From a virus (Duplodnaviria > Heunggongvirae > Uroviricota > Caudoviricetes): a stretch of 64,000 nt of DNA. The DNA lies in the IMG/VR virus record IMGVR_UViG_3300042564_004805, positions 64,001-128,000 of that record; one strand, given 5' to 3'. A model generated the notes under the pieces. It ran no database searches. It was not told where the DNA came from and saw only the letters and a list, made by a program, of their open reading frames with translations. Below, piece after piece: positions 29,658 through 49,208 of this stretch; position 1 is the first letter of the stretch; every line of letters starts with the position of its first letter. A program made the translations under genes and the position numbers.

Positions 29658-30018
29658 GGTACTTTCGCAATTCCCAGGTGGTGTCTAAGTCTTTGGCCCA
29701 TTTTGCCAAGTTTTGATAGCTGCTGAGAGGCACTTGCGGCCAAACTTCTGTCGCATGCAACCTTTGTGTTTTGTCTGCCATTCTTTCAACAGTGACCAAG
29801 AGCCCGCACTCACTGGGACGCATGCTGTCGTCCAACAGCCCTTGTAGCCAAAGGCATTGAAACCGAGTGCAGAATTCAGGTTTAGTGATGTAAATGGTGC
29901 AACCTGTGGTGTGCAAAAATCTGCAGGGGGTGCCGCGAGTTTGAATGTTTCCATAGGCATTGCCATAGAGATGGCCTTCACAACAGGCAGTGCAACTCCC
30001 GCAACTTCTATTGGGCAT
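29641..30018 (-). CDS. YkgJ-family Cys-cluster (CxxCxxCC) protein
   Basis: CGSCTACC, PCRFL..GCTIY..KP..C..F.C.W and RPSECG. Confidence 0.8.
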   Translation of the reverse strand: MPNRSCGSCTACCEGHLYGNAYGNIQTRGTPCRFLHTTGCTIYITKPEFCTRFQCLWLQGLLDDSMRPSECGLLVTVERMADKTQRLHATEVWPQVPLSSYQNLAKWAKDLDTTWELRKYHELQS

Positions 30019-30823: not shown

Positions 30824-30825
30824 GC

Positions 30826-32950: not shown

Positions 32951-32953
32951 GGG

Positions 32954-33496
32954 TTACTTTACTACCACTAACTGAATGTAGACTTCGTCGATTATGTTAC
33001 AGTGCTGTTCAAGATACTGCTCTACCTGTTCTTTAGGTTGCCCCACAAATTGATCTTTGTATTTTTCCATGGGTCGCAAGCTGTAGTCCACCACCTCAAA
33101 ATCCACATTGTAGCGTTCGGCAAGCCTACTGGCATGTGCACCTTGCTTGCGTGCCAATTGGTTGTATTTGCAGCCAAACAAGCGCAAGCCATCTACAGTG
33201 ACTGGGCGTTTGTGCGTGGGGTCGCTGAAGAAGTCATCACTGCGGTGATGAGGTACATGAATATGTACTCTTGCCCCAGGTTTGCACACTCGATAAATTT
33301 CCTGCAGACAGTGAAAATACCCCTCGCCCAAGTGCTCTAACACATGAGTGGCTCTCAACACATCTACACTGTTGGTGGGAAATGGGAAAATGTCTTTTTC
33401 AAGGTCAAAACAAAAATCAGGATTGCAGTTGGGATCGTAGTCACAGTGCACATATCCATCAATCCTGTCTTCACCTGCGCCAATATAGATTTTCAT
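32954..33496 (-). CDS. Methyltransferase type 11-like protein
   Basis: IYIGAG...DGYVHCD, DLEK..FPF..NSVD...ATHVLEHL and EIYRVCKPGA....VPH. Confidence 0.85.
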   Translation of the reverse strand: MKIYIGAGEDRIDGYVHCDYDPNCNPDFCFDLEKDIFPFPTNSVDVLRATHVLEHLGEGYFHCLQEIYRVCKPGARVHIHVPHHRSDDFFSDPTHKRPVTVDGLRLFGCKYNQLARKQGAHASRLAERYNVDFEVVDYSLRPMEKYKDQFVGQPKEQVEQYLEQHCNIIDEVYIQLVVVK

Positions 33497-35097
33497 TGTG
33501 ATTTCTCCAAAAGCTGTCCATTCAACATCAGTGCGGCAACGCTGTCATTGGTTTCAAAAAATCTCAAACTCTGTTCAGGAGTTTCCATAATGGGCTCTCC
33601 AGCGCCATTCAAGCTGGTGTTGCACAGCACAGGAACGCCTGTCAATTGATGGTAACAAGTGAGCAGTTGGTGCAACTGGGGATTTTGTTCAGCTGTAACA
33701 GTTTGCGGGCGTGCACTGTTGTCCACATGACACACTGCTGGAATCAGTTGCGGCTTCAGCACTTGTGCAGTGTAAAGCATGTAGGGGCTCGAGGGTATTG
33801 GCAAGGAGAACCAATCGTGGGCGTGTTCCTGCAACACCACAGGCGCAATAGGTCGAAACCATTCTCTGTTTTTCACTGCGAAATTTATTTTCTCACGCAT
33901 GTGATAGCTTTGTGCATCAGCCAAAAGACTTCTGTGGCCCAGTGCTCGAGGCCCATATTCGCTTCTGCCCCAGTGCCAGGCCACTATAGCTCCTTGAGCC
34001 AGTAGCTCACAAACTCTAGTGTAGTCCACAATGGAGGTAGTGTTTTGAGAAGGTCCCAAATAACATAAATTCTGCGGTTGATAATTTTGCCTTGGTAAGT
34101 CAAACAAATGGTGCGCTACCCAAAGAGCGGCGCCCACCGCATTGCCGTCATCGCCACATGCAGGAAAGTGATGAATGCCCTCCCAAAGCTTGCTTTCAGC
34201 TATCCGGCTGTTCAAGATGCAGTTCAGCATGCTGCCACCACTGAGGCATAACTGTCGTTGCGGATAAATTTGGTGCAGTGTAGCTAGTGTTTCCAGAACA
34301 CTCTTCTCCAGTAGCTCTTGAATAGTAGCAGCCAAATCACTGCTTTCCTTGTGTGTGAGCTCATGTGGGTGCTTGGCAATGAGTTTTTCCCACACATTGC
34401 TCCAGAACTTCCTGTATTCCAACTCAGCGTGTTCTTGAACACTGAACCATTGTTTTTTCAAAATCTCATCAAAAATAGGGCCAGTGAGTGATTTACCATA
34501 ACTGCTGAGTCCCATGGTGGTGCCTGCCTTGCTGTAGGCTGGGGAGAAACCCAACAGCTCGGTGAAGATGGCATACCCAATACCTGAGATGAGTGTTGGG
34601 CACATTTGAGCTTGAAGCTTAGTGCCTTCACCAAAAAACACCATGTTGTTGTCGCCAAGTTCGCCAAAACTGCTGTCTAAGCTGAAACAAATGGCCTTAT
34701 CAAAATTGCTAGTGTAGTAGGCACTGCTGGCATGCGCCAAATGATGTGGCAGCACATACACTGGTATTTTGTGGCTGCCGAGGAAAACACCTGTAAGCGT
34801 TCGCACGTCGTTGTTGTAGAGTGAGTAGGCAGTTCTCTCCACAGTGTTGCCATCACTGTCATATAGTGCCAAGACACCGTTGCTGTGGTTGGCCTTGTAG
34901 TCAGCCAATGCTATGCAACTGATGTCCTCAGGTTTAAGTGAAGCTTCCTGAAGTATAGCCTCAATTGTTTTGTTGGTTACACCAAAAGCCTTTTTTTCTC
35001 TAGTAACACGTTCTGTTCCCAAAGCTGCTGTTAATCTGCCATTTTTCACAACTGCCACAGCACCGTCGTGAGAAAAATTCATTCCCAATATGTTCAT
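33493..35097 (-). CDS. O-carbamoyltransferase (NodU/CmcH family)
   Basis: HDGAVAVV..G, ERVTREK, HHLAHASSAYY.S.F, AGTTMGLSSYG, SGGSMLNCILN, GDDGNAVGAA, EYGPRALGHRSLL, KNREWFRPIAP and NTSLN..GEPI. Confidence 0.95.
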   Translation of the reverse strand: MNILGMNFSHDGAVAVVKNGRLTAALGTERVTREKKAFGVTNKTIEAILQEASLKPEDISCIALADYKANHSNGVLALYDSDGNTVERTAYSLYNNDVRTLTGVFLGSHKIPVYVLPHHLAHASSAYYTSNFDKAICFSLDSSFGELGDNNMVFFGEGTKLQAQMCPTLISGIGYAIFTELLGFSPAYSKAGTTMGLSSYGKSLTGPIFDEILKKQWFSVQEHAELEYRKFWSNVWEKLIAKHPHELTHKESSDLAATIQELLEKSVLETLATLHQIYPQRQLCLSGGSMLNCILNSRIAESKLWEGIHHFPACGDDGNAVGAALWVAHHLFDLPRQNYQPQNLCYLGPSQNTTSIVDYTRVCELLAQGAIVAWHWGRSEYGPRALGHRSLLADAQSYHMREKINFAVKNREWFRPIAPVVLQEHAHDWFSLPIPSSPYMLYTAQVLKPQLIPAVCHVDNSARPQTVTAEQNPQLHQLLTCYHQLTGVPVLCNTSLNGAGEPIMETPEQSLRFFETNDSVAALMLNGQLLEKSQ

Positions 35098-35100
35098 AAC

Positions 35101-35931
35101 TTAGTATAATAGCCATTTGTCCTGAGAAATCAAATAATCACGTAAATGTAAATATCCCTTCATCATGGTGTGAAATTTCAATAATTGCCCTTGCATGGTG
35201 TTTTTGTTGTAGTCAATTTTTTCCAAATGTTCAAAGTAGAAGAGGCATTCTTGTTCGCTGAGATACAAAGGTGCGTTGTACCAACCATGAAATCCCAATG
35301 CTGAGGTGTAACCAGTGAGCACTTCTGCACAGAATTTTAAGCTGATATGTGCTGGAGCGAATCGAATGTTGTAGGCAGTTTCAAGGTAATTCTGGTTGAG
35401 CAGTGTAATCACAGCATCCTCACTGATGAAGGGCGTGTTGTGATTGGGGGTGTAGTTCCGGGTTTTGATCTGGGGATCTTCAGCTAGGATTTTGAGGAGG
35501 CGACGGCTTCGCAAGCTTAATCCTCCGCCACAGGTGAACCAATCTGCGTTTTTAAATTCTTGGTAGTGGCCACTGGCTTGCAGGCTGCCTTTCATTGGCG
35601 GAAATTCAGGATGCGAGAGGCTGCCCACGTAATCATATTCAAAATATTCATCAGTCCAGGCTTTGGGGTTTGTGGCTATGCCATCATAGTGTGCTATCAA
35701 CACAAAATCAGTGTTGATGTAGCTGTGCATGCTCTTGAGGCAGAAATCACAGTATTCCAGCATGCCAAAGTTTTCTGGAATTGGATATTGTGTATGGGGT
35801 TGTGCAAGAGTTAATGGTTGATCTGACACCACAATTGTGGTGGTGATCGGTGTAGAGGCAAGGGTTTTTTGAAGTGAGAAACTAGTGAGTTCGTGCTGGA
35901 TGTTTGTGATGGTGAATAGAGTAAGGGTCAT
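35101..35931 (-). CDS. DUF5672-like (GT-A-like) protein
   Basis: VLI...DG...NP.AW.DEY..YDYVG, GGGLSLRS, EDAVI and ALGFHG. Confidence 0.7.
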   Translation of the reverse strand: MTLTLFTITNIQHELTSFSLQKTLASTPITTTIVVSDQPLTLAQPHTQYPIPENFGMLEYCDFCLKSMHSYINTDFVLIAHYDGIATNPKAWTDEYFEYDYVGSLSHPEFPPMKGSLQASGHYQEFKNADWFTCGGGLSLRSRRLLKILAEDPQIKTRNYTPNHNTPFISEDAVITLLNQNYLETAYNIRFAPAHISLKFCAEVLTGYTSALGFHGWYNAPLYLSEQECLFYFEHLEKIDYNKNTMQGQLLKFHTMMKGYLHLRDYLISQDKWLLY

Positions 35932-35963: not shown

Positions 35964-37313
35964 CTAGTTATAGCACTGGAGAATTGCAGCCGTCATGGAA
36001 CCGGCCGAAGTTTGACACCACGCGGTGCTGCTGCTTATTTCTCTCACCGGACTTGAGCGATTGGTAACAGTGTTATCTCCTAACACACCGCAATCGTTAA
36101 ATCCCCAAGTCCAAAGTGTGCCATCTGTCTTTATTGCAGTGTTGTGATTACTACCAGCTGAAGTTTGACACCAAGTGGTGGAATTGGTGATTTCTCTCCC
36201 TGGACTTGATAGTAGACCTGTGTTGTTGATTCCTAACTGCCCACACTGGTTAAATCCCCAACTCCAAAGTGTGCCATCTGTTTTTATTGCACTAGTCCAG
36301 GCGCTTGCCGAAGTTTGACACCAAGTGGTGCTGCTGCTTATTTCTCTCACCGGACTTGAGCGATTGGTAACAGTGTTATCTCCCAACTGCCCACACCTAT
36401 TACACCCCCAACTCCAAAGTGTGCCATCTGTCTTTACTGCACTGATGGTAATACCTTTACCAGCTGATGTTTGACGCCAAGTGGTGGAACTGGTGATTTC
36501 CCTTACAGGACTTGAGCGATTGGTAACAGTGGTGTCTCCTAACATACCGCAATAGTTATTTCCCCAACTCCAAAGTGTACCATCTGTTTTTAATGCACTG
36601 GTGTGAAAACTACCACTTGATGTTTGACACCAAGTGGTTGAACTGGTGATTTCTCTCACTGGACTTGAGCGACTTGTAACAGTGTTATCTCCCAATCTGC
36701 CACACCCGTTATATCCCCAAGTCCAAAGTGTACCATCTGTTTTTAATGCACTGTTGTGAGAATTACCAGCTGAAGTTTGACACCAAGTAGTTGAACTGGT
36801 GATTTCCCTTACAGGACTTGAGCGACTTGTAACAGTGTTGACTCCCAACTGACCCTGGACATTGTATCCCCAAGTCCACAGTGTGCTATCTGTTTTTATT
36901 GCACTAGTGAAGGCGCTGCCTGCCGAAGTTTGACACCAAGTGACAGAACTGGTGATTTCTCTCACTGGACTTGAGCGACTTGTAACAGTGTTGTCTCCTA
37001 ACGGACCGCATATATTACGACCCCAAGTCCACATCTGTCTAAGAGGCCAATCTCGACGTAAAACCCTACCATCCAATCCCACCCATGAAGTACAAGTGGA
37101 TATTACAGGTACACAAATACTTTTGACAAAAACTGTTTGACCAAAACCTATGCACTTTGTAGCTAGGTCAGGTAAGTCTGATACTGTGTTAACAACAAAA
37201 CTAATGCCAACTCCAGCAGCACTGGTTTGGGCTGCTAACAAAGGAAAACAAACACTGTCGCAAGCAGTTATTAATGAGTCAATACTAGTTTGGATTTCAG
37301 AGGGTGTTGGCAT
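35964..37313 (-). CDS. RCC1-repeat beta-propeller protein, N-terminus type A
   Basis: About seven 52-aa repeats: W[ST]WG.N..G.LGDNT...RSSPVREI.SSTTWCQTSAG..H..A.KTDG. Confidence 0.9.
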   Translation of the reverse strand: MPTPSEIQTSIDSLITACDSVCFPLLAAQTSAAGVGISFVVNTVSDLPDLATKCIGFGQTVFVKSICVPVISTCTSWVGLDGRVLRRDWPLRQMWTWGRNICGPLGDNTVTSRSSPVREITSSVTWCQTSAGSAFTSAIKTDSTLWTWGYNVQGQLGVNTVTSRSSPVREITSSTTWCQTSAGNSHNSALKTDGTLWTWGYNGCGRLGDNTVTSRSSPVREITSSTTWCQTSSGSFHTSALKTDGTLWSWGNNYCGMLGDTTVTNRSSPVREITSSTTWRQTSAGKGITISAVKTDGTLWSWGCNRCGQLGDNTVTNRSSPVREISSSTTWCQTSASAWTSAIKTDGTLWSWGFNQCGQLGINNTGLLSSPGREITNSTTWCQTSAGSNHNTAIKTDGTLWTWGFNDCGVLGDNTVTNRSSPVREISSSTAWCQTSAGSMTAAILQCYN

Positions 37314-37326
37314 GTTCTGTCTCCAT

Positions 37327-38667
37327 TTACTTCAAGGCACTGGTGTGAAAACCACCAGCTGATGTTTGACGCCAAGTGGTGGAACTGGTGATTTCCCTTA
37401 CAGGACTTGAGCGATTGGTAACAGTGGTGTCTCCCAACTGACCAGAGCCATTGCCGCCCCAAGTCCAAAGTGTGCCATATATTTTTAATGCACTGGTATG
37501 TATCCACCCGACAGAAGTTTGACACCAAGTGGTGGAACTGGTGATTTCCCTTACAGGACTTGAGCGATTGGTAACAGTGGTGTCTCCCAACTGACCAGAG
37601 CCATTGTATCCCCAAGTCCACAGGGAGCCATCTGTTTTTATTGCAGCGGTATGGATACCAGCTGAAGTTCGACACCAATTGGTGCTGTTGGTAATTTCTA
37701 TGTTTGGATTTGAACTATTAGTGATGGTGTTGTTTCCCAGCTGGCCCGACCCGTTTTCTCCCCAAGTCCAAAGTGTGCCATTTGTTTTTATTGCAGCAGT
37801 ATTCGTAGGGCCTGCTGAAGTTTGACACCAAGTGGTTGAACTGCTACTTTCTCTCACTGGACTTGACTTAGCCGTAACAGTGTTGTCTCCCAACTGACCC
37901 CAACCGTTCCAGCCCCAAGTCCAAAGTGTGCCATCTGTTTTTAATGCACTGGTATGGCTGCCGCTGTTAAACCCGCCTGACGAAGTTTGACACCAAGTAG
38001 TTGAGCTGGTGATTTCTCTCACTGGGCTTGAGCGACTAGTGACAGTGTTGTTTCCCAGCGTACCACAGGATGCATTTCCCCAACTCCAAAGTGTGCTATC
38101 TGTTTTCAATGCGCTTGTGTGGGCATTACCAGCTGAAGTTTGACACCAAGTGGTTGAGCTTGTGATTTCCCTTACAGGACTTGAGCGACTTGTAACAGTG
38201 TTATCTCCCAACTGACCAGAGACATTGTAGCCCCAAGTCCACAGTGTGCTATCTGTTTTTATTGCACTAGTCCTACCACCGTTGGCAGCGGCGGCTGAAG
38301 TTTGACACCAAGTGGTGGAACTGGTGATTTCTCTCACTGGACTTGAGCGACTAGTGACAGTGTTGTCTCCTAACCGACCACACCCGTTAAAGCCCCAACT
38401 CCAAATTTGGTTTAGGGGAGTAGTACCTATAACACCCCATCCCGTAACTGTGGCCACATACAGTGAGGTATTCAACACAACATAATACAATTCACCCACA
38501 TTTGCGGCGGCTGTTGGTAAATCAGTCACTGCGTTCACCACATACACCTTGCCGCTTCTCAACTGCTGCAATACCTTGCTGTAGTAAAACAAATCCTGCT
38601 CATTAGTAGTGCTGGATATTTTTTGCTGCATTGTGAACACTAGATTAGCTACATTGATGGTAGACAT
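37327..38667 (-). CDS. RCC1-repeat beta-propeller protein, N-terminus type B
   Basis: Same repeat; N-term QQKI..DLFYYSKVLQQLRSG..LPTAAANVGELYYV. Confidence 0.9.
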   Translation of the reverse strand: MSTINVANLVFTMQQKISSTTNEQDLFYYSKVLQQLRSGKVYVVNAVTDLPTAAANVGELYYVVLNTSLYVATVTGWGVIGTTPLNQIWSWGFNGCGRLGDNTVTSRSSPVREITSSTTWCQTSAAAANGGRTSAIKTDSTLWTWGYNVSGQLGDNTVTSRSSPVREITSSTTWCQTSAGNAHTSALKTDSTLWSWGNASCGTLGNNTVTSRSSPVREITSSTTWCQTSSGGFNSGSHTSALKTDGTLWTWGWNGWGQLGDNTVTAKSSPVRESSSSTTWCQTSAGPTNTAAIKTNGTLWTWGENGSGQLGNNTITNSSNPNIEITNSTNWCRTSAGIHTAAIKTDGSLWTWGYNGSGQLGDTTVTNRSSPVREITSSTTWCQTSVGWIHTSALKIYGTLWTWGGNGSGQLGDTTVTNRSSPVREITSSTTWRQTSAGGFHTSALK

Positions 38668-40028
38668 CAAAGGAATCCTTTGCAGGTTAGGATTTTTAAG
38701 GCACTAATATGGGCAGATGCCGAAGTTTGAAACCAAGTAGTAAAACTGCTGATTTCTCTTACTGGACTTGAGCGACCAGTTGTTGTGTTGTCTCCCAACT
38801 GACCATACTGGTTCCGGCCCCAATTCCAAAGTGAACCATCGGTTTTCAATGCACTGACTGTCTGATTTCTGGAAGTTGAGGTTCGACACCAATTATTGCT
38901 GCTGGTGATTTCTCGCCCTGGTACTCCAGTACATGCGGTGGTGTTGTTTCCCAACACACCACAACTGCCGTACCCCCAGGTCCAAAGTGTGCCATCTGTT
39001 TTTACTGCGGTGCCGGCATTGGAACCTGAGGCAGTTTGACACCAAGAAGTACTAGAGAGGGCTTCTCTCACTGGACTTGATCTATTGGTTGAGGTTCCGT
39101 CTCCCAATGTACCGCAGAAATTGCGTCCCCAAACCCACAATGTGGAGTCTGTTTTCACTGCACTGGATACTTGACTTCCAGGGGAAGTTTGGCACCAATT
39201 GGTGGAACTGGTGATTTCTCTCACTGGACTTGACCGCGTATTGGTGGAGTTGTCTCCTAACTGACCCCAAATACCACATCCCCAAGTCCATAGTGAACCA
39301 TCTGTTTTAACTGCACTAGCTATGCTCGCACCAAAGGCAATTTGGCACCAATTGCTGCTGCTGCTGATTTCTCTTACCGGACTTGAGCGACTTGTTGTTG
39401 TGTTATCGCCCAACTGCCCACAGAGATTGAGTCCCCACACCCAAAGTGTGCCATCAGTTTTTATTGCACTAGTGGGACTATTACTACCAGCCGCAGTTTG
39501 GCACCAATTACTGCTGCTGCTGATTTCTCTTACGGGACTTGAGCGACTTGTTGTTGTGTTGTCTCCTAACGAACCACCCGTGTTATAGCCCCAACTCCAA
39601 AGCGAGCCATCTGTTTTTATTGCACTGGTGTGACCACCACCAGCCGAAGTTTGACACCAATTGCCGCTGTTGCTGATTTCTCTCACCGGACTTGACCGAC
39701 AAGTAACAGTGTTGTCTCCCAACTGACCAAACCCATTGGCTCCCCAAGAAAAAACGCTGGGTTCAACACGCTGCACGATGCTTCGAAAGTCTGTTGTCCA
39801 ACAAATGCCATCACTGACGCGATACTGGCAAGTGTCTTGTAGATACACCATCCTTCCTTGATTCAAGGTCGCAGTGGGCAAAGCAGCGAGATTGGAAAAA
39901 GAAACCACTGCTTGAGTGTCGAGAATACATTGTGCACCCTGCAACTGACAACAGCTTAATGGAGTAAGCCCACCTGCTGCCAAACGTGAAGTAATTTGTG
40001 TTTGTAGTGTTTTTGCTGATGTGGTCAT
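38667..40028 (-). CDS. RCC1-repeat beta-propeller protein, N-terminus type C
   Basis: Same repeat; N-term ..LPTATLNQGRMVYLQDTCQYRVSDGICWTTDF. Confidence 0.9.
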   Translation of the reverse strand: MTTSAKTLQTQITSRLAAGGLTPLSCCQLQGAQCILDTQAVVSFSNLAALPTATLNQGRMVYLQDTCQYRVSDGICWTTDFRSIVQRVEPSVFSWGANGFGQLGDNTVTCRSSPVREISNSGNWCQTSAGGGHTSAIKTDGSLWSWGYNTGGSLGDNTTTSRSSPVREISSSSNWCQTAAGSNSPTSAIKTDGTLWVWGLNLCGQLGDNTTTSRSSPVREISSSSNWCQIAFGASIASAVKTDGSLWTWGCGIWGQLGDNSTNTRSSPVREITSSTNWCQTSPGSQVSSAVKTDSTLWVWGRNFCGTLGDGTSTNRSSPVREALSSTSWCQTASGSNAGTAVKTDGTLWTWGYGSCGVLGNNTTACTGVPGREITSSNNWCRTSTSRNQTVSALKTDGSLWNWGRNQYGQLGDNTTTGRSSPVREISSFTTWFQTSASAHISALKILTCKGFL

Positions 40029-40029
40029 G

Positions 40030-41403
40030 TTATTGCGGAACAACTAATATAGTTTTAATAGCACTAGTATCCACTTTACCAGCCGAAGTTTGACACCAAG
40101 TGGTGCTGCTGGTGATTTCTCTCACTGGACTTGATCGATTGGTAATAGTGTTGTCTCCCAACTGACCACACAAATTGCCTCCCCAAGTCCAAAGTGTACC
40201 ATCTGTTTTTAATGCACTGTTATTGACACAACCAGCCGAAGTTTGACACCAAGTGGTGCTGCTGGTGATTTCTCTCACTGGACTTGAGCGACCAGTTGTT
40301 GTGTTGTCTCCCAACTGACCACACCCGTTAGAGCCCCAACTCCAAAGAGCGCCATCTGTTTTTATTGCAGACGCGTGCCGATATCCAACTGATGTTTGAC
40401 ACCAAGTAGTGCTGCTGCTGGCTTCTCTCACTGGACTTGACCGGTTTGTTGTTGTGTTGTCTCCCAACTGCAAACCTCCTCCCCAACTCCAAAGTGTGCC
40501 GTCTTTTTTTATAGCACTAGTGCTTATACCACCAGCTGAAGTTTGACACCAAGTGGTGCTGCTGGTGATTTCTCTTACAGGACTTGACTTACTTGTAGCA
40601 GTGTTGTCTCCCAATCGACCATAGCCGCCGGAGCCCCAACTCCAAAGTGTGCCATCTGTTTTTACTGCACTGGCAGTATAATTACTGGATGCTGTTTGAC
40701 ACCAAGTGGTGCTGCTGGTGATTTCTCTTACTGGGCTTGAGCGATTGGTAATAGTGTTGTCTCCCAACTGACCAGAGGCATTGCTGCCCCAACTCCAAAG
40801 TGAACCATCTGTTTTTATTGCATGTGTACTTCTGTTATCAGACGTAGTTTGACACCAAGTGGTGCTGCTGGTGATTTCTCTTACAGGACTTGACTTACTT
40901 GTAGCAGTGTTGTCTCCCAATCGACCGTAGTTGCCTCTGCCCCAACTCCAAAGTGTGCCATCTGTTTTTAATGCACTGGTATGATAAAAGCCAGCTGAAG
41001 TTTGACACCAAGTGGTGCTGCTGGTGATTTCTCTTACTGGGCTTGAGCGATTGGTAATAGTGTTGTCTCCCAATCGACCGTTGTTGTTGCCGCCCCAACT
41101 CCAAAGAGCTCCTCCCACTGTAGGAGTGAAATTCCTGCCATCAAAACCAATCCAACAGCCATTGAGGCTCACTACGGGCACAAGTGCATCGCACAAAAAA
41201 ACAACATGCCCATTTGGTAACCCAGTTGAACAACTGCAACCAAATAAGGTATCTATGCTGATGAAACTACTCCGATTACTGTCAACAGCGTCTTGTGATG
41301 CTGCTGCTAACACCACATCCATACTGCATGTGAGTGTGCCACTTGAGCATATTTCGCTCACCACAGAGTTGAGAAGTGTTGCACAGCAGAGGTTATTGGC
41401 CAT
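40030..41403 (-). CDS. RCC1-repeat beta-propeller protein, N-terminus type A
   Basis: Same repeat; N-term ..GHVVFLCDALVPVVSLNGCWIGFDGR. Confidence 0.9.
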   Translation of the reverse strand: MANNLCCATLLNSVVSEICSSGTLTCSMDVVLAAASQDAVDSNRSSFISIDTLFGCSCSTGLPNGHVVFLCDALVPVVSLNGCWIGFDGRNFTPTVGGALWSWGGNNNGRLGDNTITNRSSPVREITSSTTWCQTSAGFYHTSALKTDGTLWSWGRGNYGRLGDNTATSKSSPVREITSSTTWCQTTSDNRSTHAIKTDGSLWSWGSNASGQLGDNTITNRSSPVREITSSTTWCQTASSNYTASAVKTDGTLWSWGSGGYGRLGDNTATSKSSPVREITSSTTWCQTSAGGISTSAIKKDGTLWSWGGGLQLGDNTTTNRSSPVREASSSTTWCQTSVGYRHASAIKTDGALWSWGSNGCGQLGDNTTTGRSSPVREITSSTTWCQTSAGCVNNSALKTDGTLWTWGGNLCGQLGDNTITNRSSPVREITSSTTWCQTSAGKVDTSAIKTILVVPQ

Positions 41404-41414
41404 CTTGCGCTTCC

Positions 41415-42065
41415 TTAACCACCACTCACTAGATTGGGCACGTTGCCTACCACTAACACTTCCAACTCCTCTATAGTGGTTGAGGCAGTGATTTCATCAT
41501 CTTTGAGTTTTTCCCAGTCAAATGTGGCTTGAATATGCGCTGCACCAGCAGCGACGCATTGGCCTAATTCATCTTTTGTGAGAGTGAGCCAAGTTTCCGG
41601 AAACTTCCAATTCACTGTTTCATCAGTTGCCATAAGAGAGTATTTTTGCACAAAAATGTTCCTACCTTCTCTGCTAGTGTCAATAGTAACTTTTTTACCT
41701 TGTATCACAGTGTGTGTGCCACCCACTTCAGCAGTGTAGCGATTGGCTTGTGCCTCGTCTCGCAACTGAGCTTGTATCTCCCAAATTTGCTTGTATTTGA
41801 TCTCAAATGTACCAACGGCAATTGCAGGATTAGTGAAATCCCAGAACGGACCATAATAGGTTTGTGTTCGAGAGTTATGATCGGGTATCACCAGCTGTGC
41901 TGTGGTCAAATAGGTGGCATCGTCTATCACAATAGGAACGGTTTCAGGGTCATTGCGCGGCAGCAATGCTGAAATCTTAAGGCGGTCCAGACCGCCTTCA
42001 AACATTGGCCTATTCCAACTCATTGGACCTACCAACACTCTTTCGTTATGTACTAACACATACAT
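41415..42065 (-). CDS. DUF4376-like tail-fibre assembly/adaptor protein
   Basis: RYTAEVGG..I.G..V.IDTSRE.R, VNWKF..W..LT..EL......HIQATFDWE. Confidence 0.65.
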   Translation of the reverse strand: MYVLVHNERVLVGPMSWNRPMFEGGLDRLKISALLPRNDPETVPIVIDDATYLTTAQLVIPDHNSRTQTYYGPFWDFTNPAIAVGTFEIKYKQIWEIQAQLRDEAQANRYTAEVGGTHTVIQGKKVTIDTSREGRNIFVQKYSLMATDETVNWKFPETWLTLTKDELGQCVAAGAAHIQATFDWEKLKDDEITASTTIEELEVLVVGNVPNLVSGG

Positions 42066-42082
42066 ATTTTATTCCTTTTATC

Positions 42083-43402
42083 TTAAATTGTTTGCCGGGC
42101 TACAGTAAACAGGCCCTGTCCTATGCTAACTTCACTCCAGGAGCTTGAACTGGATATTTCACGTATAGGCAATAAACTTCTGATTGTAGAGTTGTTACCA
42201 AGTTGGCCACAATTGTTATTACCCCACATCCATAAAGTGCTTGCGGTTGTTAAAGCGCCACTTCTGCCAAAGCCGGCAGTGACTTGGCACCAATTGGTTG
42301 CACTTGTTGCTTCCTGAATTGGTGAGCTCCTGGATACAGTAGAGTTGTCTCCTAAAGCACCACAAGCGTTGCAACCCCATGCCCATAGTGTGTTAGTTGT
42401 TTTTAAGGCAATAGAGTGAGCAAACCCAGCGGAAGTTTGACACCAAGTGGTGGAGCTACTTATCTCTTGAACGGGACTTGATACATTGCTAGTGCTATTA
42501 TTGCCAAATTTGCCACACTCGTTTGACCCCCATCCCCATAAAGTACCACTTGTTTTGAGTGCTAGGGTACCGTAGAGGCCGGCAGAAACTTGACACCAAT
42601 TGGTTGAACTGGAAATTTCTCGCACAGGACTAGACCTATTAGACAGATTGCATGTGCCCAGTTGCCCAGTCCCATTATTTCCCCAACCCCAAAGGGTTCC
42701 ATCTGTTTTTAGTGCAGCAGTATGCGAATATCCAGGTGAGGTTTGGCACCAAGTGGCACTGCTGCTGATTTCACGCACTGGGCTAGATTTGTTAACTATA
42801 GTGTTATCACCCACTTGGCCATATGTGTTCTTTCCCCATGCCCACAAACTGCCATCACTTTTAACACCAGACATTGTGTAAAAAGACGTACCTATTTGAC
42901 ACCAAGTTGTGCTGCTGGTGATTTCTCTTACAGGACTTGACTTACTGGTAACAGTGTTGTCTCCCAACTGACCACATACGTTATTGCCCCAAAGCCATAA
43001 GGAACTATCCTGTTTTAACCCCATTGAATTTACCGAACCAGCTCTGAGTTGCAGCCAGTTGCAGGAGCTTGTAATCTCTCTGACAGGACTTGATTGATTG
43101 GTTGTATTACTTGTGCCCAATTGTCCACAACTGTTTGACCCCCACGCCCAACCTGTGTTAGACTGTGATACAATAGGAATCCAAAATACAGAATTACTGA
43201 AAACTACTCTTTGAGCGTCTTCAACCAAATACAATTTACCATTGCTGGCTGATGCAGTAGGTAATAATTGAGAACAGGCTACAACAAACATAGCGCCTGT
43301 TCTCAGTTGTTGAATAGCCCGTGTATATGTGAGCAAATCTAGATTGTCGTTGCCTGCTGCGATTTTTTGGCTAAGGGCAAATTCAATTTGATTTAAGTTC
43401 AT
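42083..43402 (-). CDS. RCC1-repeat beta-propeller protein, N-terminus type B
   Basis: Same repeat, more diverged; N-term SQKI..DLLTYTRAIQQLRTG..LPTASASNGKLYLV. Confidence 0.9.
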   Translation of the reverse strand: MNLNQIEFALSQKIAAGNDNLDLLTYTRAIQQLRTGAMFVVACSQLLPTASASNGKLYLVEDAQRVVFSNSVFWIPIVSQSNTGWAWGSNSCGQLGTSNTTNQSSPVREITSSCNWLQLRAGSVNSMGLKQDSSLWLWGNNVCGQLGDNTVTSKSSPVREITSSTTWCQIGTSFYTMSGVKSDGSLWAWGKNTYGQVGDNTIVNKSSPVREISSSATWCQTSPGYSHTAALKTDGTLWGWGNNGTGQLGTCNLSNRSSPVREISSSTNWCQVSAGLYGTLALKTSGTLWGWGSNECGKFGNNSTSNVSSPVQEISSSTTWCQTSAGFAHSIALKTTNTLWAWGCNACGALGDNSTVSRSSPIQEATSATNWCQVTAGFGRSGALTTASTLWMWGNNNCGQLGNNSTIRSLLPIREISSSSSWSEVSIGQGLFTVARQTI

Positions 43403-44748
43403 AGTGCTACAAATCCTGAAATTTTACCTTGAATGGCCATTGTTTGCCTTGTACTGCTAGTTACACAACTCCACGACGTGGCTGATGTTATCTCTCTCAC
43501 AGGACTGGAAACTGATGTAACTGTGTTGTTCCCCAACGCGCCACATGATGCATTTCCCCAGGTCCACAATGTGCCATCTGTTTTTAACGCCGCGGTATGC
43601 GCGCATCCACCAGATACTTGACACCAAGTTGTTGATGATGAAATTTCTTGTATAGGACTGCTCCGGCTGGTTGCAGTATTATTTCCCAGCTCTCCACATG
43701 TATTTAAACCCCATGCCCACAGAGTGCCATCGGTTTTTATAGCATTTGAATGATACTTGCCAGGCCCAAATGTGCACCAATTTGTAGAGCTGGAAACTTC
43801 TCGAACTGGGCTGCTGGCATTTGAGGTAGAGTTGTTACCGAGAACGCCATATCCACCTGAGCCCCAGCTCCAAAGTGTATTGTCTTTTTTCAACGCAACT
43901 GCTAGGTTGTAACCGTTTTGTATTCTGCACCAGGAGGTTCCGCTTGTTATTTCTCGCACTGGTGAACTGAAGTTAGTTGTGTTGTTGGTTCCCAGTACTC
44001 CACATGTGTTGACTCCCCAGGTCCACAGACTGCCATCAGACTTGACAGCAGCAGAGTGTCGCAGCCCTCCACTGCTGATTGAACACCAATTTGTACTTGA
44101 TGATACCTCGCGGATTGGAGAACTGCGGGTTGTTTTGGTGCCATCGCCCAAATTACCGCAAAAGTTGTCGCCCCATGCCCACAGTGTGCTATCACATTTT
44201 AAAGCCAAAAGATGGAACGCAAATGACCCTACACTTGTCCAGGTTGAAGAACTACTTATTTCACGAACTGGACTACTTTGGTTAGCTGTTGCATTATTGC
44301 CCAGTGCACCACAATTGTTGTAACCCCAAGTCCATAGTGAAAGGTCTGATTTTATTCCTGCTGATGTTGTATTGCTAGTGACAGTAACCCAATTGCAGCT
44401 TGAGCTTATTTCTCGAACAGGTGAACTCTGGGAAGTTGTTGTATTATTGCCCAAACCTCCACAGAGGTTCCAACCCCACCCAAACACACATGCGCCTGTC
44501 CAATTTGTATTGAAGTCATTGGTCCATTGGGTGCCATCACTGTAGCGATAGTCGCCAATGTCCGTTATCCAAATAAACCTGCCTGTATTGTCACATGCTG
44601 TTGGCAATGCTGCACAATTTGCTACACAATAGATCCCATTCAAAGCCGCTTGAATACCTGCCAACTGAGCAGTTTGCAGAACATCTTGATTGGCCAAGAC
44701 AATGCATGCGTTGGCTTGTGTGATGAGTTTGCCAGCAGCCACAGACAT
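43399..44748 (-). CDS. RCC1-repeat beta-propeller protein, N-terminus type C
   Basis: Same repeat, more diverged; N-term ..LPTACDNTGRFIWITDIGDYRYSDGTQWTNDF. Confidence 0.9.
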   Translation of the reverse strand: MSVAAGKLITQANACIVLANQDVLQTAQLAGIQAALNGIYCVANCAALPTACDNTGRFIWITDIGDYRYSDGTQWTNDFNTNWTGACVFGWGWNLCGGLGNNTTTSQSSPVREISSSCNWVTVTSNTTSAGIKSDLSLWTWGYNNCGALGNNATANQSSPVREISSSSTWTSVGSFAFHLLALKCDSTLWAWGDNFCGNLGDGTKTTRSSPIREVSSSTNWCSISSGGLRHSAAVKSDGSLWTWGVNTCGVLGTNNTTNFSSPVREITSGTSWCRIQNGYNLAVALKKDNTLWSWGSGGYGVLGNNSTSNASSPVREVSSSTNWCTFGPGKYHSNAIKTDGTLWAWGLNTCGELGNNTATSRSSPIQEISSSTTWCQVSGGCAHTAALKTDGTLWTWGNASCGALGNNTVTSVSSPVREITSATSWSCVTSSTRQTMAIQGKISGFVAL

Positions 44749-44752
44749 GTGA

Positions 44753-45010
44753 TTAAGTCAGTGCCAACAAAGCTAGTGTTCGAGCAGTGTTGTCTTGGCC
44801 ACCAAAACTGCCCCAAACTGTGCCGTCGTAGCCTTCAAAACTGGCTTGCGTAGTATTGTAACGGATTTGTCCTGTTGCTGCTGTTGGTCTTTCACCATCT
44901 GTGCCCACAGGCAATTTTAGTGCAGATGTGCCGCTGAAATTGGCATACCCAGTAATAGTCAAATTTTGGTTATCGGCGATGACTGTAACGCCTGATATTT
45001 TTATGGCCAT
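44753..45010 (-). CDS. Small fibre-associated structural protein
   Basis: ALKLPVGT..ERP...GQIRYNTT..SFEGYDG..WGS motif typical of T4-like fibre modules; TATAAATA and GGAG upstream. Confidence 0.65.
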   Translation of the reverse strand: MAIKISGVTVIADNQNLTITGYANFSGTSALKLPVGTDGERPTAATGQIRYNTTQASFEGYDGTVWGSFGGQDNTARTLALLALT

Positions 45011-45043: not shown

Positions 45044-45051
45044 TATTTATA
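45044..45051 (-). promoter_or_regulatory. T4-type late promoter TATAAATA
   Basis: Exact consensus heading the RCC1 gene array. Confidence 0.7.
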
Positions 45052-45069: not shown

Positions 45070-45609
45070 TTAACTTTGATTTAGTCCCAAGTGTTTTTTC
45101 AATACTTCAATACTTTCGGCCTGCTCTTGCAATGCCTTCAACAACAGCGGTATCAACTGAATATATGCCACAGTTTTCCCTGACGCGGTTGTACTCACAA
45201 GAGATGGTATAACTTGCTCTACTTCTTGAGCCAATAAACCAAAACTGTGTTTGCTGGCATGCTTCCAGTCAAAACTAACGGGATTGAGTTCCTTGAGAAT
45301 AGCCCAACTGTCGGTAATTGTTGAGATGTTTGTTTTGAACGCAGCATCACTGATGCTGTTGAAGTCAACAGCAGCCACTTCACCAGTGCCAGGATTATAG
45401 GTGAATGCTGTTGCAGTGCTGCGTATCCTAGGAGTAGTGCTAGAGCCAGCAGTGTCCACAAAAACCGGATAAAATGTTGAATTTGTTGTGGTATTTGTAG
45501 CAGTAATTGAGGTTGAGCTGCCGGCTGTTCCGCTCCATCCACTAGTGCCAGAAAATCCACTTGTGCCCGCACCGCTAAATCCGCTCCATCCACTTGTTCC
45601 GCTCCAGCT
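45070..45609 (-). pseudogene. 5'-truncated fibre gene remnant: Ser-Gly-X triplets plus intramolecular chaperone (peptidase S74) domain
   Basis: In frame: WSGTSGWSGFSGAGTSG...FYPVFV...SDAAFKTNI...LKELNPVSFDWK...GLLAQEVEQVIPSLV...VAYIQLIPLLLKALQE. No ATG start; GTG at 45459 is possible. Confidence 0.7.
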
Positions 45610-46002
45610 TTTGAATACACAGCTTATTCCTGCTCGGGGGTTGATTTCAAATGGTTGATTGAGAGCTCAAATTCAAAAATTTCTCTCTTGAGGCAGAAAC
45701 ACAACATCATTGTTGAGCAAAATTATGCGTTGACCTTTGGCTAGCTTGATAGCTAGATTGTTGGCACCACTTTATCCCAAGGGTTGATCACTCCATACAA
45801 TTTGACAGTGATCAGCCATGCCAACACTGACAAATTGCTGTTGTAGATCTTGTAGATAGTCACATTTGTTGTCTGTGCAACCATTGGCGCTGACTATCAA
45901 TTCAACGTCAGTCATTTTGTTATGAGAGCAAAGGCTTGTAGTGCAAGGTTCTAACAAGTCATTGCAGTGGTTGTAGGTTGGTATGATAATAGAGTATTTG
46001 AA
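45610..46002 (-). pseudogene. GT2 glycosyltransferase pseudogene
   Basis: KYSIIIPTYNHCNDLLEPC...VSANGCTDN...PLG*SGANN...IILLNNDVVFLPQERNF*I*ALNQPF...ISCVFK. Stops at 45772-45774 (TAA), 45673-45675 and 45667-45669 (TGA); TTC sits where Met is expected. Confidence 0.75.
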
Positions 46003-46063
46003 TTGTAGAGTCACAACAAAATTATACAAACTTTTTGATAGCACTACAATTTAGAGATTGAAA

Positions 46064-46567
46064 CTACACGTTCATCTCCGGAAGGAATCCCGGAGGATAA
46101 GGATTCACTGATTCCACAGGAACAATGTGTAAACTAGGCCAAATAATATTGAAAGGATCTTGTTGTGTTTGAGGTATATCAGCTAGTTCTTGAATATAGC
46201 GTTCGAGAGTGAGGATATCATCAATTGGAGTGAGACCCAATCTTAAGTATCGATTACAGCGTTCAACTCTCCATGCAACCGACTGAATAAGTATATCTCT
46301 CTGTTGTCGCACATCTTTCCATTTTGTCTGCTTCAGCATTTCAAGTTCTTCCAGGGTATATTCGGTCACTATCCACGCACCTGTGATATCATTCCACAAC
46401 AATTTCTCATTGTCCTGTAGTTGAGGAGGATCACTTACAGGCACATATCCAGCATCATCAATTTCTTCTGGAGTGAAAGTGCTAGGATCAGTTCGTGTTC
46501 TACCATCTAATAGTCTTATCCTGAATGGCAACGACTGAGGCCATTGGTTTTTATAGGAATACAGCAT
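46064..46567 (-). CDS. Phage tail fibre assembly chaperone
   Basis: W..VRQQRDILI....W and Y.QELADIPQTQQDPFNIIWP; AAGGAG before ATG 46567. Confidence 0.8.
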   Translation of the reverse strand: MLYSYKNQWPQSLPFRIRLLDGRTRTDPSTFTPEEIDDAGYVPVSDPPQLQDNEKLLWNDITGAWIVTEYTLEELEMLKQTKWKDVRQQRDILIQSVAWRVERCNRYLRLGLTPIDDILTLERYIQELADIPQTQQDPFNIIWPSLHIVPVESVNPYPPGFLPEMNV

Positions 46568-46747
46568 ATTATGTCTCCTTAAGTTCCTGAGAATCTTGGC
46601 ATAGTAGTATTGATGAGACCTCCGAGATAGAGTTTTTGTTGTTGTTATCAAGTGAGATACTATAAGCACTATTTTGCAATAGTGAATGATTGCAATAGTA
46701 ATTGACTGCGACAGTAGTGATTGTCTTGACAAATATCATCTTGTAAT

Positions 46748-46921
46748 CTACCACTTGCCCAATGGGCATTTGGCGAAATGGAACTTCCATTTCGCTAGCA
46801 TGATGCATCCGCATTCCTGGCAAGTCTTCATTATAGTAAATCTCGAACATGATTGGCATGAATCCTTCCGTTCATGGTATTTTGAAGGGTCATCCAGCAG
46901 CTTGAGGTTTGTCAACAACAT
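46748..46921 (-). CDS. Small Cys-rich zinc-binding protein (57 aa), absent from the ORF track
   Basis: MLLTNLKLLDDPSKYHERKDSCQSCSRFTIMKTCQECGCIMLAKWKFHFAKCPLGKW; pattern R..C..C...C..CGC.M..K...CPL.KW. Confidence 0.7.
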   Translation of the reverse strand: MLLTNLKLLDDPSKYHERKDSCQSCSRFTIMKTCQECGCIMLAKWKFHFAKCPLGKW

Positions 46922-46922
46922 C

Positions 46923-47798
46923 TTATAGATTCCCAGTCTGGGTTGTCGGGAACAGTCTAGTGGTTCCTGGCCATATTATGCGAACGGCCCCATTCCCGCC
47001 ACTAACGCTACCGCCGCCGTCACTCTGAAGCCCACCGCCGCCATACAATGCACCCACACCTGTACCTGTGTAACCCTTGCCATTTTCGCCACCACTGCCG
47101 CCGCCGCCGCCTGCACTGCTACTCGCTCCCCCATTACCCCCTGCTGTTCCATTTGCTCCTTGTCCCAGTATTCCTACGCCGCCCCCAGCTGTTGCATAAT
47201 AAGAGCTACCTCCACCGCCGCCACCGCCGGAACCAGCGTTGCCAGGTCCTGATGCGCCACTTGTAACGCCCGCAGCACCACCATTACCTGTGTAGCCACC
47301 TGCGCCACCACCACCAGAATACGCGCCAGTATTTGAAGCACCACCATTACCTCCGCCGTCTCCAACATAAGTTCCACCTGCACCTGCATAAGTTCCACCT
47401 CCACCTTGTACGGTTAAAGCGGATATGAAATAGCTAGCAGCACCATTTGCACCAGCACCGCCACCTGCACCAACAACCACAGTATATAATGTGCCTGGCG
47501 TAACACTGATGTTATTTTTATAACCCAAACCACCGCCACCGCCACCTAGATATGTGGTCGCTGTGGCACCTTTTCCGCCCCCTCCCCCAACGCATACTAC
47601 ACTCACGCTATTTACTCCCGCAGGGCATGTCCATGTGTATGTACCGGGAGTGGTATATGCCTGTTGTCCAAGGGAAAGAATTACGGGTGGCCAACGATTA
47701 TGCTTTACTGCCAAAAAATTTTCTCTCAAAGACCATACTCCTGAAGCTACTGAAGTAGTTGGATCATTTGGTTTGCCTATGATATTGCCTTTGCCCAT
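46923..47798 (-). CDS. Glycine-rich putative fibre/adhesin protein
   Basis: ASGVWSL N-term, YTTPGTYTWTCPAGV.SVSVVCVGGGGG, polyglycine runs and GAVRIIW. Confidence 0.75.
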   Translation of the reverse strand: MGKGNIIGKPNDPTTSVASGVWSLRENFLAVKHNRWPPVILSLGQQAYTTPGTYTWTCPAGVNSVSVVCVGGGGGKGATATTYLGGGGGGLGYKNNISVTPGTLYTVVVGAGGGAGANGAASYFISALTVQGGGGTYAGAGGTYVGDGGGNGGASNTGAYSGGGGAGGYTGNGGAAGVTSGASGPGNAGSGGGGGGGSSYYATAGGGVGILGQGANGTAGGNGGASSSAGGGGGSGGENGKGYTGTGVGALYGGGGLQSDGGGSVSGGNGAVRIIWPGTTRLFPTTQTGNL

Positions 47799-47817
47799 TT
47801 ATACGGTCTTTTATCTG

Positions 47818-48849: not shown

Positions 48850-49208
48850 TAACTGATTTCCTCATAGCTACACACAGCTTCCAGATCACTTACAGCACTA
48901 GCAGTCAAACGTATGCTGTCGCCTTCTTCAAGATAAATTGAAGTATCTTTGCTGATAACAACTAGCGATGCGTCTGCTGGTACGGAAATGGTATTCGCTA
49001 GTCTATACGCTACAGAACTTCTGAACAAATCCACAGTAATGTCTGCATTGTTGGTCCCGTCAACATTTGAAATTACTAGACTGTTGATTTTAAAGACTTT
49101 GTTACTTGCTGCTGAATTGGTAACTATTGCTGTAGCACTTGTACCAACTGCTTGTACCGCAGTTTTACCAATAATTGTTGTGACATTTACTATATTAGGG
49201 GCTGACAT
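48849..49208 (-). CDS. Conserved small phage structural protein
   Basis: APNIVNVTTI.GKT...ANTISVPADASLVVI.K..SIYLEEGDSI. Confidence 0.65.
   Translation of the reverse strand: MSAPNIVNVTTIIGKTAVQAVGTSATAIVTNSAASNKVFKINSLVISNVDGTNNADITVDLFRSSVAYRLANTISVPADASLVVISKDTSIYLEEGDSIRLTASAVSDLEAVCSYEEIS

Follow-up and report, generated by a model that had tools for sequence, protein, structure and literature searches.

Does an array of RCC1 propeller genes, in which three types of N-terminal domain recur in order, encode receptor-binding tips built of three different chains? To our knowledge, almost all solved phage fibres are homotrimers, and the homotrimer assumption for phage receptor-binding fibres underlies host-range engineering and prediction. 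The window analysed here, a stretch of 64,000 nucleotides, contains six adjacent RCC1 propeller genes on the minus strand, between positions 35964 and 44748. A first-pass annotation had read them as two ordered C-B-A triplets forming obligate heterotrimeric fibre tips.

The RCC1 array and the head of its operon

The six genes stand as first described: ORF coordinates, the minus strand and RCC1 profile matches all agree, and the transcription order C-B-[DUF4376]-A-C-B-A is borne out by gene positions and N-domain comparison. No seventh RCC1 gene was found by tblastn in the whole 180.7-kb genome. In each gene, the N-domain is followed by a seven-blade RCC1 propeller, and all coordinates given below refer to the minus strand. 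The first gene, g1 (class C, 43399..44748), has its N-domain at residues 1-85 (44494-44748). Its orthologue in the related locus L078 (6807-8159) is 66% identical in the N-domain and 67% in the propeller. The start of g2 (class B, 42083..43402; N-domain residues 1-81, 43160-43402) overlaps the g1 stop (ATGA). The 216-residue DUF4376 gene, hereafter named x (41415..42065), and g3 (class A, 40030..41403; N-domain residues 1-97, 41113-41403) come next. They are followed by g4 (class C, 38667..40028; N-domain 39762-40028), g5 (class B, 37327..38667; N-domain 38413-38667) and the last gene of the array, g6 (class A, 35964..37313; N-domain residues 1-91, 37041-37313). Comparison with the L078 orthologues indicates that g4 probably starts at ATG 40028, not at TTG 40043, up to which the reading frame is open, and that g5 probably starts at ATG 38667, not at TTG 38670. 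This g5 ATG overlaps the g4 stop by 1 nt.

The operon is headed by p85 (44753..45010), a mini-fibre-like gene of 85 residues that ends with a stop codon 4 nt ahead of the g1 ATG. Translational coupling is observed from p85 to C, from C to B and from A to C. The p85 protein carries the motif LKLPVGT..ERP....GQIRYN....FEGYDG..W and a conserved ARTLALLAL tail, and is 87% and 51% identical to its orthologues in L078 and L082, respectively. In L035, a small gene with a p85-like C-terminal tail immediately precedes the first class-C gene. About 34 nt upstream of p85, we found the T4-type late-promoter consensus TATAAATA (45044..45051), with an AAGGAG ribosome-binding site downstream of it. The window contains only two matches to it, versus ~1.1 expected by chance. 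In addition, TATAAATA precedes the orthologous small genes of L078 and L082 at an equivalent position and is thus kept in three genomes; we infer that it acts as a late promoter. Fibre genes lie upstream of the array, and a collagen-like fibre with an S74 end directly precedes it in L078 and S-SRM01. The array also adjoins glycan-tailoring genes (DUF5672, carbamoyltransferase, methyltransferases).

All six proteins match the RCC1-like-domain profile PF25390 (1e-57 to 1e-87) and PF00415 (4e-41 to 4e-50). Each has 5-7 RCC1 repeat matches and seven W-x-W-G blade starts spaced by ~51 residues; 29 of the 42 extracted blades are exactly 51 residues long. AlphaFold2 modelled the g4 propeller with a pLDDT >95 from residue 87 on, and a Foldseek search with this model retrieved UVR8 and the HERC2 RCC1-like domain (E 1e-33; TM 0.83-0.91, normalised to target length). 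By their profile matches and blade counts, the six proteins are RCC1-like seven-blade beta-propellers. Variable propeller loops are found just after W-x-W-G and around blade positions 39-42.

Three classes of a fibre-like N-terminal module

Among the N-domains, C pairs with C, B with B and, more weakly, A with A. When each pair was scored by local alignment against 300 shuffles, same-class z values were 20.6 (C-C), 17.7 (B-B) and 6.2 (A-A), and 0 of 300 shuffles reached any of these. Cross-class pairs were mostly at chance, apart from B/C pairs (z 3.0-6.1) and the g5 (B)/g6 (A) pair (z 7.0). In tblastn searches against the 180.7-kb genome, C-C and B-B N-domains matched at 1e-11 to 1e-13, and A-A at 0.003-0.009 over 26 residues. 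The six N-termini form three classes of 81-97 residues, not one short tag common to all.

A tree built from the 27 N-domains of four genomes also recovers the three types proposed at first pass, with nine A (clade, 100/98), nine C (clade, 99/97) and nine B sequences. The most diverged N-domain, that of g3, lies on a long branch within the A clade (100/98), and that of g6 groups with those of the g6 genes of L035 and L073 (support 95/92). Every gene is assigned to its class by HMMs with a margin of 33-134 bits; g1 scores 116 bits with the class-C HMM, 101 bits above the next class, and g3 scores 103 bits with the class-A HMM. The motifs by which the types had been recognised are present, but several of their spacings were miscounted (9 residues, not 6, from GR to Y; 7, not 2, from QKI to DL). 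All six N-domains co-align, with L-P, G and W invariant, so that the three types are diverged classes of one domain. Overall, as judged from their sequences, the N-domains are three ancient, non-interchangeable classes of a homologous module. No charge complementarity was found between the classes.

The chains had been supposed to join through complementary N-terminal helices. Instead, the N-domain combines a helical hairpin with a small beta unit after it (H6-18, H23-38, E42-44, E60-63 and E68-72 in the AlphaFold2 model of g4; pLDDT 62-83). It is homologous to a long-fibre repeat and to the N-terminal part of a solitary fibre protein. It is present in 4-15 tandem copies within the long fibre-like proteins P0009, P0054 and P0085, and it heads the solitary fibre gene P0084 of L088, which has a canonical fibre sequence. 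This distribution implies that homotrimers are presumably possible too. The family is not rare, a profile search with the N-domain yielding 625 representative proteins (clusters at 50% identity). No Pfam or PHROG family matched the module, and Pfam gave no gp10-like match in the N-domains even at E<=10; one Atlas row, T4_gp9_10_N, matched with a TM of 0.42 over 48 residues. Weak structural matches were obtained with Mtd residues 6-48 (Z 3.6), the collagen XV trimerisation domain (Z 3.4), CBA120 TSP3 (Z 4.0) and tail-fibre models in BFVD. From its repetition in long fibres and its place in a solitary fibre, the module looks like a trimer-type fibre module.

In separate trees, the propellers cluster by genome and the N-domains by class. 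All six propellers of L073 group in a single clade (SH-aLRT 100), and those of g3-g6 of the present phage in a second (98). Between genes, blade DNA reaches 92% identity.

Class balance and the DUF4376 partner in related arrays

Related RCC1 arrays are common among viral contigs, at least 581 stretches being confirmed. Arrays were recovered whole or nearly so in eight lineages, namely the present phage, L078, L035, L043, L073, L097, L100 and the L105 group. Three gene orders are observed in relatives: C-B-x-A-C-B-A, C-B-B-x-A-C-A and C-B-x-C-B-A-A-C-B-A. Each of these complete or almost complete arrays has an A:B:C ratio of 2:2:2 or 3:3:3, and none lacks a class. The third set of L043 is a lineage-specific C-B-A duplication, with g3/g7 and g5/g9 as sisters. 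Conservation of the triplet order, as the first-pass annotation would have it, holds in part: C-B-x-A-C-B-A recurs in L078 and L035, but the widespread C-B-B-x-A-C-A breaks the contiguous C-B-A. Hence, contiguous triplets are not required, and the equal composition is still kept.

Gene x matches PF14301 (1.3e-11; 45.3 bits versus a cutoff of 25) and PHROG tail-fibre families. Its Atlas neighbours are DUF4376 clusters, one of them with Caudo_TAP_N on 26% of its members. Orthologues of x are found in every related RCC1 array, including S-SRM01-type arrays, which lack the N-domain. The gene had been described as an adaptor inserted in the first set. Because it accompanies every such array, even those without N-domains, it is not an insertion, but the orthologous partner of all of them. 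It is probably a tail-fibre assembly (Tfa-like) chaperone of the array.

Possible heterotrimeric tips, rival readings and known systems

In the reading that we favour, the array (p85, C, B, x, A, C, B, A) would be a virion operon that an uncultured freshwater phage related to T4 transcribes late. A single chain of each class would co-assemble with the other two via the N-modules, giving a pseudo-threefold heterotrimer with three different propellers, each of them a probable receptor- or glycan-binding head. The DUF4376 protein would serve as assembly chaperone for these tips, and p85, together with the neighbouring collagen-like fibre, would provide their attachment. The present genome would give two such tips and some relatives three. 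Three classes in equal numbers fit, but do not prove, tips of three different chains; virion location, trimer formation and 1:1:1 co-assembly are what we infer. Some fixed-ratio A/B/C hetero-complex is, in our judgement, slightly favoured. The narrower arrangement, one C, one B and one A chain per heterotrimeric tip, is our leading reading and is put forward tentatively. Obligate ABC heterotrimers in which chains of two or three sets mix freely seem quite unlikely. Were the sets to mix freely, six genes would give up to 8 three-propeller tips and nine genes up to 27, a combinatorial widening of the phage receptor repertoire that is not described for any virus.

The N-domains of g4 (C), g5 (B) and g6 (A) were folded together from alignments of our own making, with g6 as the scored partner and three controls. 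The ipSAE was 0.82 versus 0.41 for the best of the three controls, a comparison made for ABC only. The ipSAE mark is reached by 58 of 80 solved complexes and by 2 of 110 mismatched pairs, counts that are only rough here because of these alignments and the three chains. Partner pLDDT did not fall below 83, and 90% or more of the contacts recurred between runs. The contacts look asymmetric, A helices touching B helices and not C helices. As the three classes are homologous, the predictor may place any three of them together, and the fold cannot separate ABC from AAA, BBB or CCC.

Each RCC1 protein may instead form its own homotrimer via the N-module. The classes would then define how these homotrimers dock in a branched multi-receptor-binding complex resembling the tailspike clusters of CBA120-type phages, either at three different positions or in a C-to-B-to-A hierarchy. 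This is possible, if somewhat unlikely. A full class complement per complex would explain the equal numbers, and the strong prior that fibres are homotrimers points the same way, as does the presence of the N-module in a solitary fibre gene and its repetition within single long fibres. N-domains that keep their class across genomes while heads cluster by genome are also the pattern expected of branched receptor-binding complexes; in CBA120 and G7C, the N-terminal parts are conserved and the heads exchanged. On the other hand, the classes are homologous copies of one trimer-type module and not distinct adaptor folds such as T4 gp10-like domains, no gp10-like family being detected by sequence and the Atlas row (TM 0.42) being the sole hint. 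In the C+B+A fold, the A-B pair still reaches 0.41 with C replaced, so that the contacts could be between trimers; however, nearly the whole A domain is buried between B and C, which resembles an oligomer core more than a docking surface.

The periodicity and equal numbers could also be the footprint of block duplication, the six proteins being independent, largely redundant modules that share one attachment site and whose classes diverged neutrally. Virion arrays of tandem RCC1 genes with variable copy number exist elsewhere (13 copies in 121Q, 6 in PBECO4; PMC5259590), repetitive blade DNA favours unequal recombination, and the eight lineages represent only three independent arrangements. 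Yet none of the eight diverged lineages (0/8) has lost a gene or become unbalanced, with N-domain identity down to ~25-45%. Cross-class propeller recombination would give unbalanced or chimeric arrays, and none was seen. The classes are sharply separate though propellers cluster by genome, and the A and C clades arose long before the arrays were rearranged. We therefore regard such a footprint as unlikely. A non-virion role in or on the host, for instance as effectors or partners of the glycan-modifying enzymes whose genes the array abuts, is very improbable given the late-promoter motif conserved upstream, the fibre-like N-module, the position directly after a collagen-like S74 fibre in L078 and S-SRM01, the ever-present Tfa-like DUF4376 partner and the RCC1 proteins in virions of other phages (PMC11370258, PMC5259590).

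The class balance is kept strictly through rearrangements and duplications, while the heads cluster by genome. Co-assembly of the chains, if it occurs, would make this the first heterotrimeric receptor-binding tip, each tip presenting three different binding surfaces. Even if each protein were a homotrimer, the locus would define an undescribed docking-module family for RCC1 virion proteins.

Among known systems, the branched complexes of CBA120 (TSP1-4) and G7C (gp63.1/gp66) consist of homotrimeric beta-helix spikes connected via T4 gp10-like domains, every member being needed for the complete complex. They resemble the present array in their adjacent paralogous receptor-binding genes, with orthologous N-terminal assembly parts and exchanged heads, but the present array has RCC1 propellers as heads, and its three N-modules are mutually homologous. 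Staphylococcus phage phi11 Gp45 and the 80alpha RBP are homotrimeric, with three identical chains from a single gene. They likewise have a trimeric stem and one beta-propeller per chain as binding module; however, their five-blade propellers belong to another family. Heterotrimers evolved from homotrimers are exemplified by heterotrimeric collagens and by the A, B and C chains of complement C1q, which is eukaryotic and collagen-based. The contractile-tail wedge heterotriplex, of (gp6)2-gp7 type, is a 2:1 baseplate core and not a receptor-binding tip (PMC13450770, PMC10966104). In all of these, side-by-side paralogous chains are joined by N-terminal trimer or helical-bundle parts and show different globular domains; no sequence relationship of the array proteins to C1q or the wedge heterotriplex was found.

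The best database relatives (48% identity) are gp335, gp337 and gp344 of Synechococcus phage S-SRM01 (a Kyanoviridae-type cyanophage), encoded with gp336. The neighbourhood is also alike, with a collagen-like S74 fibre, RCC1, the DUF4376 orthologue, more RCC1 and a TPR-protein homologue. In contrast, the S-SRM01 propellers have an N-terminal extension of only 20-45 residues, without the A/B/C module. Exactly three RCC1 genes are found in 19 of the 75 related loci, and L082 has both kinds of array. As three RCC1 genes and DUF4376 occur in S-SRM01-type arrays without the N-domain, the number three need not reflect N-domain heterotrimerisation. In E. coli phage W70, three adjacent RCC1 genes (gp237-239, phrog_4219) are represented in mass spectrometry of purified virions (PMC11370258), and the RCC1 protein GAP_001 of GAP32 was detected in the same way (PMC5259590); g3 (P0004) matches phrog_4219 at 2e-37. 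Like W70, GAP32, 121Q and PBECO4, which are large myophages, the present phage has tandem paralogous RCC1 genes. Unlike theirs, its array combines three classes of a folded module of 81-97 residues, in fixed equal numbers.

A propeller operon next to fibre genes

The minus-strand region 35964-44748 contains six long ORFs (g1 to g6) of 439-458 residues each and one ORF of 216 residues (41415-42065). All six long ORFs are RCC1-like propellers in Pfam, with seven blade starts in each, and the short one is DUF4376. Each propeller follows an N-terminal domain of class A, B or C (81-97 residues). The gene order is C-B-x-A-C-B-A, with x standing for DUF4376. The AlphaFold2 model of the g4 propeller has a pLDDT >95 from residue 87 on and matches UVR8 and the RCC1-like domains of HERC2 (E 1e-33). 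Comparison of the 42 blades showed a nearly invariant scaffold, with variable positions just after W-x-W-G and around positions 39-42. Judging from the orthologues of the related locus L078, ATG 40028 is the most likely start of g4 and ATG 38667 that of g5. No further RCC1 gene was found by tblastn across the whole 180,697-bp genome, and the 17-kb region had no megablast match among phage records. The window, which covers bases 31196-95195 of this single contig, also carries phage tail-fibre genes.

The operon is headed by p85, a gene of 85 residues (44753-45010, minus strand) whose product has a motif of fibre type and ends in a conserved tail. In four genomes, the first class-C gene is preceded by p85 or by a small protein sharing this tail. 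Coupling of p85 to C, of C to B and of A to C is through stop and start codons that overlap or nearly touch. The element TATAAATA sits about 34 nt upstream of p85, and is conserved in this position in both L078 and L082. Scans for sigma-70 promoters and terminators scored no better than shuffles. The DUF4376 protein resembles tail-fibre assembly proteins. Its gene had been taken in the first-pass annotation for an insertion into the first set of propeller genes; instead, it is a constant partner, orthologous across all arrays, that of cyanophage S-SRM01 included. A second, longer DUF4376-like protein (349 aa) is encoded upstream of the L043 array (1715-2764).

The operon of L078 comes immediately after a collagen-like fibre with a Peptidase_S74 chaperone domain at its end. 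In the window, an orphan 3' piece of such a fibre is found at 45070-45666 (minus strand). This 198-residue open frame has G-x-y repeats, a tip region and Peptidase_S74. It shares 74% identity with the intact L078 fibre over residues 511-683 of the latter, and its earliest start codon is GTG 45459. It appears to be what remained when a block of about 3.6 kb took the place of the fibre's end. A minus-strand cassette at 45772-49208 has no counterpart in L078, which is otherwise syntenic. The cassette comprises genes for a 119-aa protein (48849-49208), a 343-aa protein (47818-48849, phrog_22713), a Gly_rich_2 protein (46923-47798) and a Phage_tail_APC chaperone (46064-46732), as well as a 90-aa ORF. 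It was probably imported, as an alternative fibre tip accompanied by a chaperone of its own. On the other side of the array (28085-35931), genes for DUF5672, a carbamoyltransferase, a methyltransferase and a TPR protein follow the RCC1 genes in all relatives; this linkage to glycan-tailoring genes is kept as far as S-SRM01.

N-terminal classes and their balance

The six N-domains pair C-C, B-B and A-A (z = 20.6, 17.7 and 6.2 against shuffles), exactly as had been stated from the sequence, and most cross-class pairs are at chance level. The A-A pair is weak by tblastn. The motifs first described for each class are present, with some spacings miscounted. All six N-domains are mutually alignable, with L-P, G and W invariant; A, B and C are three diverged classes of one domain. 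A tree of 27 N-domains contains a clade A (100/98), a clade C (99/97) and nine B rows. Cys residues per domain of about 90 residues average 4.4 in class C, 3.7 in class A and 0.6 in class B (alignments A8, A9 and A10); conserved Cys is present in each propeller blade as well, and disulfide stabilisation is conceivable. Net charge showed no complementarity between classes.

IMG/VR contains at least 581 confirmed stretches with RCC1 genes of this kind, and the nearest isolates are cyanophages S-SRM01 and BUCT-ZZ01. In most relatives, the propellers have no more than a short extension at the N-terminus; 19 of 75 loci hold exactly three such genes, arranged R-[DUF4376]-R-R. The A/B/C module is carried by a smaller group, sought with subsets of the class-C and class-A alignments; a metagenome scan added four loci and no more. 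Its members are found on viral contigs derived from metagenomes and on metagenome contigs. In L082 (3510-12138), a short-N array R-x-R-R is followed, two genes later, by a p85-like gene and then by class C and class B genes, up to the contig end. Since this viral contig has both array kinds, they can coexist in one genome.

Genes were assigned with class HMMs and the balance was read from arrays recovered whole or nearly so. The order C-B-x-A-C-B-A (window, L078, L035/L055) and the order C-B-B-x-A-C-A (L073 group, L097, L100, L105-L111 group) both give A:B:C of 2:2:2. The order C-B-x-C-B-A-A-C-B-A (L043/L099; L087 and L091 in part) gives 3:3:3. These counts are of the genes recovered, further ones being possible in L097 and L073 (<800 bases before the first gene) and in L043/L099 (array stopping 347 bases short of the contig end). 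A:B:C is balanced in every such array, and arrays cut by contig ends (L082, L083, L085, L093, L094) are compatible with balance. Further class-A representatives lie mostly on short contigs ending in B-A. The ordered triplets initially proposed are therefore not universal, given C-B-B-x-A-C-A, but equal composition is, among the arrays recovered.

The N-domain tree shows sub-orthology of g1-type C, g4-type C, g5-type B and g6-type A, which indicates that the two sets predate the split between the two 2:2:2 arrangements. L043 owes its third set to a C-B-A duplication specific to its lineage. On the other hand, the propeller tree does not follow the N-domain classes. All six L073 propellers fall in one clade (SH-aLRT 100), as do those of g3-g6 of the window (SH-aLRT 98), with identities of 64-74% among g3-g6 and of 50-58% for pairs with g1 or g2. 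Blade DNA is up to 92% identical between genes. Between the window and L078, three N-domains are better conserved than the propellers they precede (69 vs 57% for g2, 56 vs 43% for g5 and 69 vs 48% for g6). Propeller heads are therefore homogenised within each genome and diverge fast between genomes, and the three stalk classes are kept apart. This argues that the stalk classes are functionally non-equivalent.

The N-terminal module in fibres

The N-domain is predicted to fold as a helical hairpin (residues ~5-18 and 23-38) and, after it, a beta unit of three strands, with moderate confidence when modelled alone (mean pLDDT 76). The six N-domains gave nothing usable from Pfam (E<=10) or PHROGs (E<=1), and Foldseek of the model against the PDB gave no match at E<=0.001. 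With the profile, the best PDB sequence was a tailspike N-terminus, at E 0.43 only. Fold searches gave weak matches, all pointing towards fibre-type or trimer units: CBA120 TSP3 (Z 4.0), residues 6-48 of Mtd (Z 3.6, with 40 residues at rmsd 2.5), the trimerisation domain of collagen XV (Z 3.4), numerous BFVD models of tail fibres, and tail-fibre, DUF2793/PTL_trimer and T4_gp9_10_N rows in the Atlas.

A profile built from 46 N-domains was searched against 1.84 billion proteins (E<=0.001) and matched 625 representative proteins. Most among the best 150 of these are 440-475-residue members of the same RCC1 family. Class counts in those 150 (C above A or B) were rejected as a stoichiometry test, because the list is ranked by score and the query profile is richer in C rows. 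Long proteins among the hits carry 4-15 tandem copies of the module; in the fibre-like P0009, P0054, P0085 and P0124, there are 5-15. Their repeat unit of about 95 residues, a helical segment plus an LP...G..VFL..D.KLY.S.G.SW hairpin, is homologous to the N-domain; judged from the scans of the six homologous N-domains, this shaft repeat is without a Pfam model. Others (P0033, P0036, P0084) have no propeller, and a B-like module stands in front of canonical fibre sequence. P0084 is a solitary fibre gene; on its small phage-like contig it has neither an A nor a C partner close to it. We infer that the N-module is a trimer-type fibre module whose ancestral state was homotrimeric. A class-B gene of 768 residues in L087 (2023-4329), also found in L090 and L091, has Gly_rich_2 inserted between N-terminus and propeller, which suggests a stalk module able to carry additional head domains.

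A predicted complex of classes A, B and C

One N-domain per class, from g4 (C), g5 (B) and g6 (A), was folded together with the other two, and each had its own class alignment. The complex had a median ipSAE of 0.82, whereas the best of three controls scored 0.41. Among reference cases, 58 of 80 solved complexes attained this mark, as did 2 of 110 mismatched pairs; these counts apply only roughly here (own alignments, three chains). Partner pLDDT was >=83 and >=90% of contacts were common to the runs. Almost all of the A domain makes contacts, through its helices with those of B and through its beta part with the beta parts of B and C. The model supports association of the three classes. As C+B+A was the sole composition folded, its score would fit a true heterotrimer and a generic trimer of homologous chains alike.

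The first-pass observation itself holds and is extended here. The heterotrimer proposed with it gains partial support, as to association of the classes, and the fold does not separate it from a generic trimer. An ABC heterotrimer is our preferred reading, held tentatively and at a little short of an even chance. Homotrimers with class-specific docking are somewhat less likely. A footprint of duplication only, without stoichiometric meaning, is improbable. A function outside the virion is very improbable, since virions of two other phages contain RCC1 proteins: E. coli phage W70, with the products of three neighbouring genes (PMC11370258), and GAP32 (PMC5259590).

Our literature searches turned up no work on RCC1 proteins in the role of phage receptor-binding proteins, and in the literature on phage tails "heterotrimer" denotes the wedge heterotriplex. 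Compared with known systems, RCC1 arrays in virions are of a known kind, as is the modular docking of receptor-binding proteins by their N-termini; a stalk system with three classes in equal numbers, on RCC1 heads, is undescribed as far as our searches show.
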